Below are positions 6,756 through 58,369 of a DNA stretch of 64,000 nt, piece by piece; within the stretch, counting starts at the first letter, position 1, and every line of letters starts with the position of its first letter. The DNA comes from a virus (taxonomy: Duplodnaviria > Heunggongvirae > Uroviricota > Caudoviricetes). Made by a program: the position numbers and the translations under genes. The DNA lies in the IMG/VR virus record IMGVR_UViG_3300049044_000033, positions 398,456 through 462,455 of that record. One strand, 5' to 3'. Under the pieces are notes generated by a model. It searched no databases. It saw only the letters and a program-made list of their open reading frames with translations, and was not told the origin of the DNA.

Positions 6756-7151
6756 TCAACTCACAAAGGCTTGAAGGAGAGTATCGAGATTGCCAACCAG
6801 CTTTGCCTTCATGGCAAGGTCGGCTTCGAAGAGTATGATCGTGATAGGGAGATATGCAGTGGCATACCAGGGCATACGACATATACGATCCAAATACAGT
6901 ATATGGCGACTGCTGAAAATCTGTTGCTCAGGGAAGACTATTTCATACTTCTTAAAATAGCTGGTCATGATTGCCAGCCCGCCTTGGCTCAATTGGAGCC
7001 CGTGCTTATTGTCGTTCCCTCCACGGAAGTTCACAAACATCAAGCGGATAATCTCATCATCAGTCATGCCAGGTAGCTGCGATACAGCAGCAACAGGTTT
7101 TTCAACCATTGCTTTCTTTATCGCAGCTATTATGGCGTAATGGATACTCAC
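6756..7151 (-). CDS. conserved jumbo-phage hypothetical protein
   Basis: 131 aa, ATGA-coupled to the upstream gene. Confidence 0.65.
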   Translation of the reverse strand: MSIHYAIIAAIKKAMVEKPVAAVSQLPGMTDDEIIRLMFVNFRGGNDNKHGLQLSQGGLAIMTSYFKKYEIVFPEQQIFSSRHILYLDRICRMPWYATAYLPITIILFEADLAMKAKLVGNLDTLLQAFVS

Positions 7152-7435
7152 TCTGAGATCGGCTTACCACCGGTTAGCTCATAGACCTTGAACTTGTCGG
7201 TCTTGAAGAGCTTGTTGAGTTTCTCAGCCAAATTAAAAGCATGTCCAGGGTTGCTGAAGCTTACTTTCTTATACTTTGGACCGGGATAGTTGATCAAACT
7301 GTTGATCGATCTTAGGTTAATTGGTTTACCATCATAGAATACAGCGTAGATCGCCTCAGCCTCGAGAACCTGTTCGGCCTTGTAGGTCTTGGGATCCGTG
7401 TAATCCAAAAGGATCTTTGGCTTTGGCCTGCTCAT
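7148..7435 (-). CDS. conserved jumbo-phage hypothetical protein
   Basis: MSRPKP...YPGPKYKKVSFSNPGHAFNLAEKLN pattern recognisable from large T4-like phages. Confidence 0.75.
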   Translation of the reverse strand: MSRPKPKILLDYTDPKTYKAEQVLEAEAIYAVFYDGKPINLRSINSLINYPGPKYKKVSFSNPGHAFNLAEKLNKLFKTDKFKVYELTGGKPISE

Positions 7436-47500: not shown

Positions 47501-49852
47501 TTACGCGATTTCAGTGAGTTCCAGGACTTCAGCCTCAGGAAGAGGAGTAGCCTGGATATCTAGCACCAAAGCATCATCAGCTACGCTGACTAGCACCATG
47601 CCACCACGCTTGAGGTCACTGAACAACATTGCCCGGCTAAGAGGCTGTGAGAGTTCATTCTGAATCAAACGAGCCAGAGGACGCGCACCCATCTTGGGAT
47701 CATAACCCTTACGAGCCAGATATTCAAATGCATCGTCACCAAGAGCAATTGTTACACCCTTGCTATTAGCCATCTTGTTCAGCTGGGCAATGAACTTCTT
47801 CACGATGCGGATCATGTTCTCGCTCTTGAGAGCGTTGAACTTCACGATTGCATCCAGTCGGTTACGGAACTCAGGAGCAAACATCTTTTCAATGACCTTG
47901 TCATCGTTGCCTGCAACCGAATTGTCACCAAAGCCCAAGGTGTTCTTCGCAAGCTCACTTGCACCAGCATTGCTGGTCATGATCAGGATCACGTTGCGGA
48001 AGTTCACCGTCTTGCCTGCGCTGTTGGTCAACTGGCCATTATCCATGACCTGCAGGAAGATGTTGAAAATGTCCGGGTGAGCCTTCTCAAGTTCGTCGAT
48101 GAGAAGGACGCAATGAGGACTATTCTCAACCGCGTTGGTCAGAAGACCCGAACCCGACGCACCATCACCAAATCCAACATAACCCGGAGGGCTACCAATG
48201 AACTTAGAGACACTGTGCTTCTCCATGTATTCGCTCATATCGAAACGATGTAGAGGAATATTCAGAGTGGCAGCAAGCTGCTTCGCAAGCTCAGTCTTAC
48301 CTACGCCCGTAGGACCAGCAAAGAGGTAGCTACCCTGTGGTTTGTTGGGATCGCGCAGACCAGCACGGCTGAGGATGACCGCATCATCGAGAGTCTCGAC
48401 AGCCTTGTCCTGACCAAACACCGCGTTGAGCAGGTCTTCCTTGAGGTGAGCCAGCTTTGCGGTCTCGTCTTCCTTGACCGACTGAGCAGGGATCTTAGCC
48501 ACTCGGCTTACTTCTTCCTCAATGAGGTCGAGAGTAATAACCGATTTGCGTTCGCCCTCTGGAGCAATGCGCTGACGAGCACCAGCCGCGTCGATGACGT
48601 CGATGGCCTTATCGGGAAGCATCTTGTCCGTCACATAACGGGCAGTCAATTCCACAGCAGCATTCAGAGCTTCTTCGTCGTAGGAAATACCGTGGTATTC
48701 AGCATAGACGTTCGAGAGACCAGCAAGGATGCGCTTTGCGTCCTCAATACTAGGTTCGAGGATATCCAGCTTCTGGAAGCGACGCAGGAGTGCCCGGTCC
48801 TTCTCAAAGTGCTTACGATATTCCTCGTAGGTCGTGCCACCGATGCAACGCAGCTTGCCCTTGGCCAGAGCCGGCTTGAGCAAGTTCGCAACATCGAGAG
48901 CACCATTGCTACCTGCGCCAGCACCCATCATGGTGTGGATTTCGTCGATGAAGAGGATAACGGGAACGTCCTTTTCCTCACCGACCTTCTCGATAGCATC
49001 GAGAATCTGCTTCACACGCTCTTCCATGTCGCCACGGAACTTTGTGCCGGCCATCAGTGCGCCGATTTCCAGCGAGTAAACAATGCCACCCTTGAGAGCG
49101 TCAGGGACATTACCCTCAGCAATCATCTTAGCCAGGCCTTCGACAACAGCAGTCTTACCCACGCCGGGTTCACCGACGATGACTGCGTTGTTCTTGGTGC
49201 GCCGAGCAGTGGTCAAAATCAAACTCGCAACTTCTGCCTCACGACCAATCAGAGGGTCAATCTTGCCTTCCAGGGCTTGTTCGTTGAGGTTGACGCAGAA
49301 CTTATCCAGAAGGCGTTCGTTCTTGGACTTCTTAGGGCCCTTGTCTTCGTCAGCAGTTCCGCCTTCGTCAAGCTTCCTAGTCTCAATAACAGCATCGTCA
49401 TCGTCTAGCAGGTCATCATGTGCGACTGCTGATTTAACGTCGAAGACATCGAGATTTTGCTTGGCCAGGAAGTAACAAGCAAAATTGCTATCGTCACCAC
49501 TCTCATTCAAGATAGCAATGAGAATGTCAGTAGCTCTGAAGTCATGCCGACCGCTAAACAGAACCTGGCTAACCGTGCGCTGGACAACTCGACCCAAGCT
49601 AACAGTCTGACGAGGCTCTGCCCCATGTGCCTTACCCAACACACCTGCGTTAAAGTGGTTGAGAAGATCAGCACTCAAATCGCTCATGTTCACACCAAGC
49701 TCTGTCATCACTTCAATGACACGCTTGTCCTGAATCACAGCGGCAAGAAGGTGCTCAAGAGTCACATACTCGTGATCATGACGCCTAGCAATCTGCATCG
49801 CCTGATCAATGATCTCCTGGGCACGAGTAGGATCGAAATCTTCAACGGCCAT
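47501..49852 (-). CDS. clpA: ClpA ATP-binding chaperone subunit
   Basis: HEYVTLEHLL, IDPLIGR, GEPGVGKT, FIDEIH, GPTGVGKTE, FDMSEYMEKH, MGARPL; no ClpB middle domain. Confidence 0.93.
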   Translation of the reverse strand: MAVEDFDPTRAQEIIDQAMQIARRHDHEYVTLEHLLAAVIQDKRVIEVMTELGVNMSDLSADLLNHFNAGVLGKAHGAEPRQTVSLGRVVQRTVSQVLFSGRHDFRATDILIAILNESGDDSNFACYFLAKQNLDVFDVKSAVAHDDLLDDDDAVIETRKLDEGGTADEDKGPKKSKNERLLDKFCVNLNEQALEGKIDPLIGREAEVASLILTTARRTKNNAVIVGEPGVGKTAVVEGLAKMIAEGNVPDALKGGIVYSLEIGALMAGTKFRGDMEERVKQILDAIEKVGEEKDVPVILFIDEIHTMMGAGAGSNGALDVANLLKPALAKGKLRCIGGTTYEEYRKHFEKDRALLRRFQKLDILEPSIEDAKRILAGLSNVYAEYHGISYDEEALNAAVELTARYVTDKMLPDKAIDVIDAAGARQRIAPEGERKSVITLDLIEEEVSRVAKIPAQSVKEDETAKLAHLKEDLLNAVFGQDKAVETLDDAVILSRAGLRDPNKPQGSYLFAGPTGVGKTELAKQLAATLNIPLHRFDMSEYMEKHSVSKFIGSPPGYVGFGDGASGSGLLTNAVENSPHCVLLIDELEKAHPDIFNIFLQVMDNGQLTNSAGKTVNFRNVILIMTSNAGASELAKNTLGFGDNSVAGNDDKVIEKMFAPEFRNRLDAIVKFNALKSENMIRIVKKFIAQLNKMANSKGVTIALGDDAFEYLARKGYDPKMGARPLARLIQNELSQPLSRAMLFSDLKRGGMVLVSVADDALVLDIQATPLPEAEVLELTEIA

Positions 49853-50349
49853 TACTTCTTCCTTTCACGCTTATCGCGCTTTTTCTTTGCCATATCCAGC
49901 GTGAGCTTACTAACTCGGCTGGTAAAGCAAACACCATCCAGATGGTCCAGTTCATGTTGGAAGCACCTAGCCGCCATACCGTTCAGGAGTCCTTCAACTA
50001 CCTGACCGTCTGAGGTTTGGTATCGAACCTGCACATAAGCTGGTCTTTTGACTTTGAAAAATAGCCCAGGGAAGCTGAGACATCCTTCTTCAACCACAAC
50101 AGGATCACCTATGCTGTATAGGACTTTCGGGTTGTAGAAAAAGCAGATTTCATTGTCGATCTTCATCGCAAAAACGCGATAGAGAAAACCCATCTGGTTA
50201 GCCGCAAAGCCAACCCCGCCATGCTCTTCCATCAGACGAGCGAGCTCGTCCTCAACCGCAGTAGCATCGGCTGGCGGATTCTCGAAGTCCCATTCGGAAC
50301 TAGCGGTATAGAGAGTTTCAGCCTCATCGGTCTGAAGAGTAAATTTCAC
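49852..50349 (-). CDS. def: peptide deformylase
   Basis: GVGFAANQ, EGCLS, QHELDHLDG. Confidence 0.94.
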   Translation of the reverse strand: MKFTLQTDEAETLYTASSEWDFENPPADATAVEDELARLMEEHGGVGFAANQMGFLYRVFAMKIDNEICFFYNPKVLYSIGDPVVVEEGCLSFPGLFFKVKRPAYVQVRYQTSDGQVVEGLLNGMAARCFQHELDHLDGVCFTSRVSKLTLDMAKKKRDKRERKK

Positions 50350-50509
50350 TTACAATGCCCTCGCGTTTGGTCGATCTAATTGCGAGTCATTGCGCTTTAC
50401 CCTCTTAGTATGCGGGATTTTCGTCCTTAATACAAGAGCAAAGTTGAAGAAATCTAACCTAAAAGATTACCTAACTTCTGCTCTGTATCTAAAGACAAAA
50501 GGTCGAATG

Positions 50510-51358
50510 TCAAGACTTTCTTTGATCCCTAAGGCTGATCAAAGTCTGGCGTTCTTCCTCGCTGAGCTTTTCAGGAGAGATGACCACTTCGACCATCATG
50601 TCACCACGACGGCCATCAGCTAGAGGCATACCCTTGCCTGCTGCCCTCAATGATTGACCCGGATGAATACCGGCCGGAATACGCATCTTAATCCTAGAAC
50701 CCTCAATGGTAGGGATTTCTACCTCAGAACCAACCAACGCATCCAAATATCCAATAGATGCAGAGGTGACTAGATTATCCCCTACACGGGCGAAAGTAGG
50801 ATGAGGGATGACATTGATGCGAATGTAGAGATCACCCGGCTTCACGTTCTTCATAGCATCATCTCCTTTGCCTTGGAAACGAAGCTTGATGCCATCCTGG
50901 ATACCTGCTGGGATCTTGATCTTGATCTCTTGGGTTTCCTTATTGGGAAGGTTATACTGGATAGAGGCCTCCTTCCCGGTGAAGCTTTCCTCTAACGTGA
51001 TCGAGTAAGCAAGACGAATGTCGTGGTTTCGAGCATCGTCGCCAAATGGATTCCTGGACCTGCGGATATCTTTGAGAATCTCCTCAATATCAACATCAGG
51101 GCTGTATGGTTGATTTGACCAATGGAAGGTCTGATTACCTCGGAAGCCACCGGAACGCTGGGCATCATACTGGGCGCGCTTCTGCTGATCTTTGAGAACC
51201 TCATAGGCTTCATTGATCTCTTTGAATCGCTCTTCAGCAGCCTTGTCACCGGGTTTTAAGTCGGGATGATTTTCCTTTGCAAGCTTACGATAAGCAGACT
51301 TGATAGTCCCATCATCAGCTGTGGATTGAACGCCTAAAACCTGGTAAAAATCTTTCAT
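50510..51358 (-). CDS. dnaJ: DnaJ/CbpA-type J-domain chaperone
   Basis: DFYQVLGV, HPD, EAYEVL; DnaJ C-terminal domain without Zn finger. Confidence 0.92.
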   Translation of the reverse strand: MKDFYQVLGVQSTADDGTIKSAYRKLAKENHPDLKPGDKAAEERFKEINEAYEVLKDQQKRAQYDAQRSGGFRGNQTFHWSNQPYSPDVDIEEILKDIRRSRNPFGDDARNHDIRLAYSITLEESFTGKEASIQYNLPNKETQEIKIKIPAGIQDGIKLRFQGKGDDAMKNVKPGDLYIRINVIPHPTFARVGDNLVTSASIGYLDALVGSEVEIPTIEGSRIKMRIPAGIHPGQSLRAAGKGMPLADGRRGDMMVEVVISPEKLSEEERQTLISLRDQRKS

Positions 51359-51445
51359 GCTCTACTTCTACTAAACCAGCTGCTCAAAGTCAAAATTGAC
51401 TATCTGGGTTAACAATAATTATCAATGTAGTTAAAGGAGAACTAG

Positions 51446-51784
51446 ATGACTGATTTGTTCAACAAGGTATATGAGACTAACCGCCAGCGAGTCATGGACA
51501 TTTTCGATCGTCGTATGCTCAAACTAGGCGAAGAATATGGCGAAGCATGTCAGGCCTTTCTGAGTGTTTCTAGTGAAAACAACAGCAAGAAGAAATCTTG
51601 GGCTGATGTTCGTGAGGAACTCGTTGATGTCTTGGTTGTCACTCTAGACCTACTCTGTCATCAGATGCCCGATGAAAAGGACATGACAAGAGAGGAGAAG
51701 TTCGCTAGCGTGGAAAAGATTTTTGACCACAAGCTAGACAAGTGGGTCAAGAAGATTAAGAAAAGTGAGGACACTAGCAAGTGA
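51446..51784 (+). CDS. MazG-like nucleotide pyrophosphohydrolase
   Basis: KLGEEYGE, EELVDV, KLDKW. Confidence 0.8.
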   Translation: MTDLFNKVYETNRQRVMDIFDRRMLKLGEEYGEACQAFLSVSSENNSKKKSWADVREELVDVLVVTLDLLCHQMPDEKDMTREEKFASVEKIFDHKLDKWVKKIKKSEDTSK

Positions 51785-52086
51785 AATATGTTCAAGCCCT
51801 AAAGCCAGAGAAGCACAACGGCGGGGCTTTCTTTGAGCATGAGATTCACTTCGAGTTGAAGGGCTATGGCCATTACATGGGCTCCCATCAGCTTCGGAAG
51901 AACATCGAAGAATTTGTAAACGAACACATTGGTTCCAAACATACTGACTTCCGTGTTTCGGTTCAGATAAAATATGTTCGACCAGATACCTCTAAGTTCA
52001 GTCCCGCAGAACCAATTGCCACTGTAAAGGTCAGGTTCACCGATAAGAATAAGGCTTTGCGCTTTAAACTTTCCTGGCCACAATAA
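51781..52086 (+). CDS. FKLxW-motif family small protein
   Basis: VKVRFTDKNKALRFKLSW; shares HNGG..F.HE with the next gene. Confidence 0.75.
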   Translation: MKYVQALKPEKHNGGAFFEHEIHFELKGYGHYMGSHQLRKNIEEFVNEHIGSKHTDFRVSVQIKYVRPDTSKFSPAEPIATVKVRFTDKNKALRFKLSWPQ

Positions 52087-52124: not shown

Positions 52125-52745
52125 ATGGAATATCGCTACGCAGAACCTCCCTTTAGACATAACGGCGGCAAATGGTTTGGCCATGAGGTCATTTTGTATG
52201 TTAATCCAAAACGCCTAGTTGAATTTAAAGACACTATCACTGCTATAGCGGGGAAGATAGGTGAGGGCTGGCGTTTATCCCACAAGACTCCCTTTAGTGT
52301 GTTTGAACATGGCAAACAGATAGTCCGGTTTTTGGATAAGAAAACTGCGATGCGTTTCAAGCTCACTTGGGAGCCTTGTGAGGAAGAAACCCTAGACGAC
52401 CTACAAAAGCTGTTTAAGAAGATAGCTCTGAATAGCCAGTATGGCTCCATGAATAAATTCAACTTCTCAGCACTTCGAGCAGCTAGCAATCCAATAAGTC
52501 AGATAACTCCCTATAGTTCTGGTATCTACCCTCTTATGACCTCGTCGGGTAAAACCATGAGCCAGATTTATCAGGCTAAATCTCGATACAACCGTTACAG
52601 TTTGCAGGATACTGAAGCAGCCTACTTGGATTACCTTTGGTCTGATATTGAGAGTAAAACTCTGAATGGTTGTAAGAACCGTCGCGATACGGTGATGACG
52701 ACTGAAGAACTAAAGAAAAGGCTCGACAATGGAACTGAATCGTAA
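52125..52745 (+). CDS. FKLxW-motif protein fused to a PolB motif-B-like segment
   Basis: VRFLDKKTAMRFKLTW followed by QKLFKKIALNSQYGSMN. Confidence 0.7.
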   Translation: MEYRYAEPPFRHNGGKWFGHEVILYVNPKRLVEFKDTITAIAGKIGEGWRLSHKTPFSVFEHGKQIVRFLDKKTAMRFKLTWEPCEEETLDDLQKLFKKIALNSQYGSMNKFNFSALRAASNPISQITPYSSGIYPLMTSSGKTMSQIYQAKSRYNRYSLQDTEAAYLDYLWSDIESKTLNGCKNRRDTVMTTEELKKRLDNGTES

Positions 52746-53250
52746 TCGCCCCGAAACGGCTCTAAAGAAGCGCCGTCATTTCAAGGACGGGTTCACCTTC
52801 TGGATCAAGCCCAGTCGTATGTCTGAACTTAGGGCGTGGCTTAGGTCTTCGGGTTTAAAGAGCAAGAAACATTATTTGCTCAGCTCTCTAAATAGCACCA
52901 GACGTATCTTGCTCAGCAACAGTAACCGACAGCTGGACCTATCTACCCAATACGTGATCTCGTTTAGAGAGAAGGATAAGGCTGCTCTCTTCAAGCTGTC
53001 ATGGAGCGAATGCGAGGTAGGAACCCCCGATGTTATCTTGCCACTCATACGCAGAGTTATGCCTAGTATTATCGCTCAGGATATTATCGGGGTTTCGCCA
53101 ATGACAGGACCGACTGGCTCGATTTTTGCTATGCGATCCAACTACGCGGGGAATCAAGGGGCCACGTCGTCCTCTCCCAACCAATCTCTTTCTAATTCAA
53201 TTCGACCTGACGAGTCAACAGACGAGTCGGGTTCGAATTCGCACCTCTGA
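52729..53250 (+). CDS. FKLxW-motif protein fused to a gp23 Gol-peptide-like segment
   Basis: ISFREKDKAALFKLSW followed by VILPLIRRVMPSIIAQDIIGVSPMTGPTGSIFAMRSNY. Confidence 0.8.
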   Translation: MELNRNRPETALKKRRHFKDGFTFWIKPSRMSELRAWLRSSGLKSKKHYLLSSLNSTRRILLSNSNRQLDLSTQYVISFREKDKAALFKLSWSECEVGTPDVILPLIRRVMPSIIAQDIIGVSPMTGPTGSIFAMRSNYAGNQGATSSSPNQSLSNSIRPDESTDESGSNSHL

Positions 53251-57320: not shown

Positions 57321-57725
57321 TTAGTCGTTAGTAGAAATTGTCTGATACGACAGGCTACCATCGTTCATCATAGGGACAATCCACCACAGGTTGGGGATAA
57401 GATTCTCAGGAAGATCATAGGCCTCTACGACTTCGATGATTTCATCCGTTACTGTCCTCAAATGCCTCATAGCCTCACTATTATGACATGAGAAGAAGTG
57501 AACTCGATAGTCTTGCCCTTCTAAAACGAAGCGCGCATCCCAGTCAATATCCACTCCAGCTTCTTCGATGAACTCGCGCTTCATTGCCATCTCAGGCGTT
57601 TCGCCGAATTCAATCTTGCCGCCGACTGCATTATAGTGACCAGCTTGCCACTCGGGACGGTTCTTTAGGATGAGGGTGACACGATCACCCTCATCACTAT
57701 ACAGGAGCCCAGCTACGAAATCCAT
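57321..57725 (-). CDS. Nudix hydrolase
   Basis: KNRP.WQAG..N.VGGKIEFGETPEMAMKREFIEEAG. Confidence 0.9.
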   Translation of the reverse strand: MDFVAGLLYSDEGDRVTLILKNRPEWQAGHYNAVGGKIEFGETPEMAMKREFIEEAGVDIDWDARFVLEGQDYRVHFFSCHNSEAMRHLRTVTDEIIEVVEAYDLPENLIPNLWWIVPMMNDGSLSYQTISTND

Positions 57726-58369
57726 CAGTTGCCCTGTCCCATTACCTTGATTGCATCAGCAGCACCAAGAGCCACTGCATCTTCAGCCGACAACCAAACA
57801 TCGTGGGGAGGAAGAAGCTTCTTGAGGATCTTCTTCTTCTTGAGACCAGTATGCTTCTTGTAGTGGTTGACCATACGGCTCTGAGTCAGTTCAAATTCGC
57901 GCTGAACTGCAAACAGTTCATGTGCCTTGCCGCGTGAACCCCAAGACCATTCGTGGCTCAGAATCGAAGTGTTGGGAGTAAGGATTCGATGACCCTTGGT
58001 GCCGGCGATGAACGTGAGGAAGCCGCAGCTACCAATCATGCCCAAGCCGGTAGTGTGAACGGGAATTGCACTACCTTCCATTGCATCGATGATTGCAAAG
58101 GCGCTGTTGACTTCACCACCTGGGCTGTTGATGATCAGGTTCAAGTGATCAAAATCATTCCTAGAAGACAAGTTGGCTTCGAGGATCCAAGTAACAACCT
58201 TGCTTGCGGTCTCGCTATTAAAGCCACCGCTAAGGAAATAAACACCTTTGTCCCTTAGCGTAGGCGAAGGGTTCATTGGAGCAGATGCTAAAACGGTAGT
58301 TGCCTCTGGGGTGCTTTCAACTTCGACACTCTTAGTAGCACCAGTCTTCTTAACCATATAAACTCCCAT
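57725..58369 (-). CDS. clpP: second, divergent ClpP-family protease
   Basis: INSPGG, GMIGSCG (catalytic Ser), G.KG.R...PNT..LSH, DVWLSAEDA. Confidence 0.85.
   Translation of the reverse strand: MGVYMVKKTGATKSVEVESTPEATTVLASAPMNPSPTLRDKGVYFLSGGFNSETASKVVTWILEANLSSRNDFDHLNLIINSPGGEVNSAFAIIDAMEGSAIPVHTTGLGMIGSCGFLTFIAGTKGHRILTPNTSILSHEWSWGSRGKAHELFAVQREFELTQSRMVNHYKKHTGLKKKKILKKLLPPHDVWLSAEDAVALGAADAIKVMGQGN

Follow-up and report, generated by a model that had tools for sequence, protein, structure and literature searches.

A small jumbo-phage protein that joins an FKLxW-family domain to a Gol-equivalent segment of the major capsid protein: a putative tethered capsid mimic

The DNA considered here, hereafter the window, is a stretch of 64,000 nucleotides forming the final 64 kb (positions 398,456 to 462,455) of IMGVR_UViG_3300049044_000033, a virus record of the IMG/VR collection that is 462,455 bp long and bears direct terminal repeats. 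On its plus strand, an open frame at 52729..53250 encodes a protein of 173 amino acids (aa) plus the stop codon, in which a domain of a family of small proteins, referred to here by its F-K-L-x-W motif, is joined to a segment of the major capsid protein and a disordered tail. The start of this fusion gene overlaps the end of an upstream paralogue by 17 nt, and the gene has syntenic orthologues (P0002 and P0003). The source genome is that of a Phosso/Atu_ph07-like jumbo phage from soil, probably one infecting Rhizobiaceae; its capsid protein shares 88.5% identity with the counterpart in Sinorhizobium phage Phosso (469 kb) and 71% with the one in Agrobacterium phage Atu_ph07. The capsid protein itself is the product of a complete 407-aa gene on the minus strand (G000:C1:335809-337032), 115 kb from the fusion gene. 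An earlier reading of the window from its letters alone (the original prediction) had described the frame, at the same coordinates, as a small scaffold protein displaying a Gol-peptide-like piece of the capsid protein, and had placed it far from any head genes; the distance to the capsid gene and the position of the frame within a run of small genes bear out the latter point.

From the N-terminus, the fusion protein begins with the FKLxW-family carrier domain (residues ~20-93; 52786..53007, plus strand), a beta-alpha-beta-beta-alpha unit ending in ...AALFKLSW that was delimited with a hidden Markov model (HMM) of the family (E 8e-6) and modelled by AlphaFold 2 (AF2) with a predicted local distance difference test (pLDDT) score of 84-92. 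A short linker follows, S-E-C-E-V-G-T-P at residues 94-101 (53008..53031, plus strand), defined by an alignment of relatives in which W-x-x-C-[ED] after the FKLxW motif is kept among orthologues. The capsid-derived module spans residues 102-148 (53032..53172, plus strand) and, as judged from Pfam, PHROG and an alignment to T4 gp23, corresponds to the end of the gp23-type N-arm and the first strand of the P domain. A Ser-rich, acidic tail (53173..53247, plus strand), recognised by low AF2 confidence and the alignment of relatives, completes the protein. The FKLSW motif, the Ser-rich disordered tail and the assignment of the capsid-like stretch to nt 53032-53145 (residues 102-139) had all been read correctly in the original prediction. 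As a separate observation on the tail, the acidic tails of four of seven aligned relatives (P0003, P0017, P0051 and P0088) end in D-x-x-R-T-S-E and the window copy ends otherwise; the shared ending might act as a short linear motif, for example as a degron or for docking.

The match of the module to capsid proteins is sharply bounded and much stronger than chance would give. Pfam Gp23 (PF07068) recognises the fusion protein at E 7.4e-15, with 55.7 bits against a cut-off of 24.4, over residues 102-156 and positions 7-61 of the 376 in the profile, and PHROG 138 ('major head protein') matches at E 2e-15. A search against solved structures aligned the module without gaps to residues 94-134 of T4 gp23 (E 6.5e-8), a stretch that contains the Gol peptide, such that the module is equivalent in both position and sequence to the 29-residue Gol stretch; the match claimed earlier is significant and restricted to that stretch. 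In T4, Gol is a 29-residue region of gp23, the most conserved part of that protein, and it binds domains II-III of EF-Tu and lets Lit cleave EF-Tu (PMC3014915). When set beside the phage's own capsid protein, as the original prediction had proposed, the module is 53% identical over 47 aa and its DNA carries many synonymous differences (proportion of synonymous differences, pS, 0.61); a phmmer search begun from the capsid protein reaches the fusion protein across capsid residues 74-121 only. The fusion protein does not match the whole HK97-fold profile (P domain, spine helix and A domain) and, having only profile positions 7-61 of 376, with neither an A domain nor a spine helix, it cannot form the HK97 fold.

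Several origins for such a fragment were considered and rejected. A recent duplication of the capsid gene is ruled out by the 53% protein identity together with the largely diverged synonymous sites, and a split or second capsid gene by the presence of one complete 407-aa capsid gene elsewhere and by the absence of the remaining fold from the fragment. As the stretch is a classic conserved g23 block, we also weighed an origin through homing or a mobile element in which the target site would have travelled along; the genes are not adjacent to g23 in the contexts seen, and no endonuclease domain was found.

Structural modelling of the fusion protein (AF2, 65-row alignment) returned a confident carrier and a low-confidence module and tail, a predicted arrangement that fits a displayed peptide. 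When the module (alignment A4) was co-folded with EF-Tu from E. coli, standing in for the host protein, the score was 0.00, 'no answer', which says nothing either way about binding. For the capsid protein of the phage itself, the AF2 model (11-row alignment) had a mean pLDDT of 39 and was unusable; grafted segments were placed through T4 numbering and PMC9546572.

The carrier belongs to a large family in the source genome. A family HMM was built from the last 70 residues of 49 motif-bearing open reading frames (ORFs) of that genome; across the genome, ~95 ORFs match it at E <=0.01, mostly in long arrays. The fusion ORF is a family member by this profile (E 8.2e-6), the match including the ...D-A-x-x-F-K-L-x-W helix. 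Unlike nearly all other members of these lineage-specific small-protein expansions, which end 0-5 residues past F-K-L-x-W, the fusion protein runs on for 80 residues that hold the capsid module, and long extensions after the domain are found in only a handful of the family. The 'small scaffold protein' of the original prediction needs correction: the carrier domain is real, but it is an ordinary member of a ~95-copy family and not a special scaffold. Fold searches with the carrier domain recovered generic two-layer alpha/beta folds only (ferredoxin/ACT/PII/KH-like; Foldseek E 0.045 or worse, VIA Z up to 6.2) and no functional relative. Among cultured phages, the family profile finds 43 matching places in Phosso and one, weak, in Atu_ph07.

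Both parts of the gene have been maintained by selection. The fusion gene lies at the same place in two related jumbo-phage contigs of 304 kb and 468 kb, in a shared order in which a ClpB/ClpA-like ATPase, peptide deformylase and DnaJ are encoded on one strand and the MazG-like and FKLxW genes on the other. Compared with the two orthologues, the module has a proportion of nonsynonymous differences (pN) of 0.16-0.24 and a pS of 0.59-0.84, for a ratio of nonsynonymous to synonymous substitution (dN/dS) of ~0.25 or below, with synonymous sites saturated in one of the orthologue pairs; for the carrier domain dN/dS is ~0.18. The low ratios, taken with the synteny, indicate that the gene is selected as a protein. 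The dN/dS check suggested with the original prediction accordingly points to purifying selection on the module, and the fusion is neither unique nor decaying neutrally, being syntenic in two contigs, under purifying selection and recurrent in its architecture.

That recurrence is extensive. Through a word-based search, the module was recovered in 11 other short proteins, in both domain orders; in the module-first type, the module stands at the very N-terminus and the FKLxW-type domain is C-terminal. Searching 1.84 billion representative proteins with HMMER, using residues 95-150, produced 1055 matches, and a script-based classification was applied to the best 150 of these together with the earlier matches. 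Among the matches classified, 32 metagenomic clusters combine an FKLxW (or Y-L-L-x-W) domain with the module, in either order, which confirms that the architecture recurs; 73 matches look like true or partial capsid proteins, and 51 are other short proteins, many of them truncated capsid genes. In several short proteins, for example P0119, P0029/P0085, P0042, P0096 and P0153, the module sits on unrelated sequence. Throughout, its boundaries are constant, at approximately residues 70-115 of the phage's own capsid protein. Judged from these sequences, the tag is portable, with either domain order and with unrelated partners.

The fused modules also have a consensus of their own. It is near the jumbo-phage capsid type (V-I-L-P-x-I-R-R-V-M-P) and unlike the cyanophage/T-even type. 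At the Q of G-V-Q-P-M, which 70 of the 73 capsid-like matches keep, 16 fusions have Q and 15 have S. The fusions thus differ from capsid proteins at set positions, which implies a constraint different from that acting on a capsid subunit. A conserved linker motif, Y-x-x-F-L-R-[LIV]-[NY]-N-R-[RK]-[KNIR], was additionally noted between module and C-terminal domain in the module-first proteins P0008-P0012, P0032, P0068, P0092 and P0121. Matches of these proteins to PHROG 12830, a 'major head protein' family of 128 positions, are confined to its final ~30 positions; this family may collect such short genes without their nature having been recognised.

In freshwater contigs, the fusions are embedded in closely packed arrays of tiny F-x-L-T-W genes, with 13 of them in 10 kb, and are not close to head genes. 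The cultured phage Phosso has a Gol-type module just after a MazG-like gene, without an FKLxW domain and in an unannotated 5' extension of a hypothetical gene. The frame of this module spans L043:5676-6356 (PV764938.1 182175-182855), and the annotated coding sequence, XYS97433.1, starts at an internal Met. The Phosso module reads ...V-K-R-V-M-P-Q-I-M-A-H-N-I-V-G-V-S-P-M... and is followed by a short G-x-x collagen-like run.

The Gol-equivalent stretch is not the sole piece of the capsid protein to have been grafted in this way. In P0013 (114 aa, contig L017), a second capsid segment, comprising the E-loop return strand and the start of the spine helix, is joined to an FKLxW-type domain (Pfam Gp23 136-198, E 1e-10), and this architecture is kept in 6 clusters at 53-92% identity. 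In three related freshwater contigs the second-segment fusion lies ~460 bp from a Gol-type fusion, the pairs occupying L017:6001-6438 and 6900-7244, the same coordinates of L018, and L044:1068-1505 and 1969-2310. In our reading of the HK97 fold, the two grafted segments would each represent one arm of the capsid E-loop hairpin, and could perhaps pair with one another.

Two further instances come from the source genome. A BLASTP comparison of all non-domain parts of its FKLxW-family members with its larger ORFs gave two matches only, both to the capsid protein. Beside the fusion gene, there is a 122-aa member with a C-terminal extension (G000:C1:28235-28603, equal to L027:5235-5603, plus strand; BLASTP E 1e-3), whose tail, G-D-A-A-A-F-Y-A-P-Y-V-P-L, is similar to capsid residues 342-359 of the same phage (Pfam Gp23 E 0.08). 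Homologues of this member other than itself were not found, and we regard its capsid-like tail as tentative. Outside the window, a 119-aa glutaredoxin-like ORF with a C-P-F-C motif (G000:C1:259623-259982, minus strand) opens with a sequence (M-S-K-L-F-E-S-x-W-x-A-T-K...) that repeats, at the protein level, about the first 17 capsid residues; its codons differ from those of the capsid gene and its upstream DNA is unrelated. Possibly, a leader for prohead targeting or a propeptide leader has here been reused on an enzyme.

The fusion gene is preceded, in the same operon and on the same plus strand, by a MazG-like gene (51446-51784) and two FKLxW paralogues identified with the family HMM, one consisting of the domain only (51781-52086) and the other bearing a 124-aa tail (52125-52745). 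The order from the MazG-like gene to the paralogues is the same in contig L024 and partly so in L026. A candidate sigma70-type promoter, TTGACT / 17-18 nt / TATCAA-like, can be read from the sequence ahead of the MazG-like gene at 51396..51425 (plus strand). A generic promoter scan found promoter-like sites no more often than in shuffled sequence, and the T4-type late box TATAAATA does not occur near the operon. The earlier description of the region as sigma70-driven was therefore too firm, as it comes down to the single plausible TTGACT-type site at 51396-51425 and a scan no better than shuffles. On the minus strand, a phage proteostasis cluster surrounds the operon, with a ClpB/ClpA-like double-AAA ATPase (783 aa), peptide deformylase and DnaJ at 47501-51358, then NUDIX and ClpP at 57321-58369; ClpP, NUDIX and an IF1-like gene are downstream in both the window and L024. 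The genome encodes Cpn10 (C1:4810-4965), but neither GroEL nor EF-Tu.

The second paralogue (52125-52745) merits separate comment. Its 124-aa tail contains K-K-I-A-L-N-S-Q-Y-G, which resembles motif B of polymerase B, and its far C-terminus, ...E-L-K-K-R-L-D-x-G-T-E-S, is the sole part shared with the L024 orthologue, the long tail being fast-evolving. Comparison with the phage's own polymerase motif gave a pairwise E of 0.06; there was no match to the phage's own reductase, the Pfam RNR_lgC match was sub-threshold (E 1e-3), and N-S-x-Y-G is missing from both syntenic orthologues. That this paralogue displays a polymerase B motif B or ribonucleotide reductase piece is weakly indicated here, and we do not treat it as support for the reading given below.

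How might a capsid fragment on such a carrier act? We favour a reading in which the fusion protein is a tethered mimic of unassembled capsid protein, competing at EF-Tu or at a capsid-sensing defence, a proposal that we hold to be nearly, if not quite, an even bet. It is suggested by the combination of a selected peptide, fixed boundaries, a folded carrier and a coding position away from the head genes; the anatomy, portability, conservation under selection and second grafted segment are observed, and the partner, the time of expression and the benefit to the phage are inferred. In outline, the stable alpha/beta FKLxW carrier would hold out a flexible 40-47-residue copy of the capsid's most conserved stretch, followed by the disordered acidic tail, and the module would occupy a cellular factor that normally reads the Gol stretch on newly made capsid protein. 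The likeliest effect would be competition at EF-Tu or a capsid-sensing immune protein, with the fusion protein acting as a non-activating competitor or a modulator of EF-Tu. EF-Tu and the defences are proposed as targets because EF-Tu is the only documented binder of T4 Gol and because Lit and Avs7 read capsid protein together with EF-Tu. In the complex through which Avs7 senses capsid protein, EF-Tu is an integral component, and short capsid motifs are what Lit and CapRel read (bioRxiv 10.64898/2026.01.04.697583, preprint). Across all readings, EF-Tu, alone or in an immune complex, is the leading candidate for the partner while still being a rather unlikely one; an immune sensor bound directly, the capsid protein or its assembly machinery, and a partner unrelated to the capsid are each less probable and rank equally; and a chaperone comes last, as a distinctly improbable partner.

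A number of considerations weigh against this proposal. In T4, free Gol peptide together with EF-Tu activates Lit and does not block it (PMC3014915), so that a plain copy would be a liability to the phage where the host has a Lit-type system, and a decoy could work only as a non-activating variant. Titration of so abundant a protein as EF-Tu would need high expression. Early expression is suggested by no more than the genomic setting and a single weak promoter-like site. For the spine-helix graft no link to EF-Tu is known, and its presence on the same family means that an explanation by Gol and EF-Tu alone is incomplete. In silico partner tests carried out here identified no binding partner. 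Purifying, as opposed to diversifying, selection is unlike an arms race with a fast-evolving receptor, but is compatible with mimicry of a constrained epitope. Finally, a search of cultured phages returned 2110 matching places in 2108 records, such that a gene of this kind is almost never present there.

The same evidence can be read as pointing back to the capsid. The copied strand could pair with the capsid protein, portal or scaffold, thereby recruiting the protein into proheads or modulating or poisoning the folding or assembly of the capsid of the phage itself, a competitor or a satellite, which we judge unlikely on balance. T4 residues 66-105 pass from a flexible N-terminal region into an extended N-arm clasped by adjacent subunits; Met98, within this region, points towards the portal whiskers (PMC9546572). 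As we read the HK97 fold, the last part of the Gol-type segment is the strand that enters the E-loop and the first part of the second segment is the strand that comes back out of it, which would make them natural pairing partners; both graft types stand side by side in L017, L018 and L044, and the glutaredoxin-like ORF with its capsid N-terminal copy suggests that capsid parts are reused as tags. Against this reading, the gene lies in a non-structural operon of small genes, 115 kb from the head genes and with no T4-type late box near it, half of the fusions have S where capsid proteins almost invariably have Q, and a fragment that interferes with assembly would endanger the phage's own capsid too. 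Less probable still, recombination within the expanded family might once have captured a capsid piece that is now an exapted or incidental part of a mosaic, a generic structural or oligomerisation element, or one of little function, with no capsid-related partner. The family is large and recombining (~95 copies here, arrays of 13 in 10 kb elsewhere), the neighbouring paralogue's long tail evolves fast, and the case for the third capsid-like tail, the C-terminal one, is weak (Pfam E 0.08; no homologues), all as incidental shuffling would have it; yet the module is under purifying selection across saturated synonymous divergence, its boundaries are identical in both domain orders and on unrelated partners, the second capsid segment is independently conserved, and the capsid protein, by our estimate ~0.3% of coding capacity, is the only detectable donor in the genome.

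The proteostasis genes around the operon invite another explanation, in which the hydrophobic, basic stretch is a chaperone or protease signal, serving as client or bait for GroEL with the phage Cpn10, for DnaJ/DnaK or for Clp. In one variant, the protein might pre-load or induce chaperones ahead of capsid synthesis, with the acidic tail as a timed degron. Synteny with the ClpB/ClpA-like ATPase, peptide deformylase and DnaJ holds in three genomes, with ClpP too in the window and L024; the phage has Cpn10 and no GroEL; and the D-x-x-R-T-S-E ending recurs among the aligned relatives. Snyder and Tarkowski reportedly found in 2005 that the N-terminal part of T4 gp23 directs fusion proteins to GroEL. 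Most other carriers of the module, on the other hand, lie in plain arrays of tiny genes without chaperone neighbours, the neighbourhood could be a coincidence in a 462-kb genome, and a generic hydrophobic signal would not require 40 conserved residues with fixed boundaries. We consider this explanation improbable, a shade more so than an incidental mosaic.

The tethered-mimic reading can be placed against known systems. As in the T4 Gol/EF-Tu/Lit exclusion encoded by e14 (PMC3014915), the module aligns residue for residue with gp23 94-134, and the T4 peptide binds EF-Tu on its own; unlike T4 Gol, it has been selected as a module in its own right, carried by a small non-structural protein, and has its own consensus, with S for the capsid Q in half of the fusions, and EF-Tu binding and Lit activation would be candidate properties only, drawn by analogy. 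Like the gp23-type capsid proteins (PF07068), it derives from the jumbo-phage branch, but the fusion holds only profile positions 7-61 of 376. Lit, CapRel, Avs7/8/10 and Dsr1 are known cellular readers of capsid protein (PMC9712102; bioRxiv 10.64898/2026.01.04.697583), and hence candidate targets of a mimic. In the literature, we found no published account of capsid-fragment genes, capsid decoys or phage capsid mimics countering capsid-sensing defences. On sequence grounds, the gene class appears to be new in kind, and its function is putative. A broader proposal, that Phosso-like and many uncultured T4-like phages keep small early proteins copying short invariant stretches of core proteins (the N-arm/Gol and E-loop/spine-helix stretches of the capsid being those verified here) as non-activating decoys against Lit/CapRel/Avs-type immunity, which would read exactly such stretches, partly through EF-Tu, is a doubtful one, somewhat less probable than EF-Tu being the partner of the present protein.

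Bacterial immunity often recognises conserved capsid features that a phage cannot easily mutate. If the tethered-mimic reading is true, these genes would represent a counter-strategy without prior description, in which the trigger is mimicked instead of changed, and the contact between the Gol stretch and EF-Tu could be approached with a natural tool of 40 residues. Phosso, a cultured relative, has the carrier family, with 43 profile matches, as well as a Gol-type module of its own, which makes the idea testable at the bench. Should the target instead prove to be a chaperone or the assembly of the capsid, a portable 'capsid tag' that recurs on dozens of small proteins is still new phage biology.

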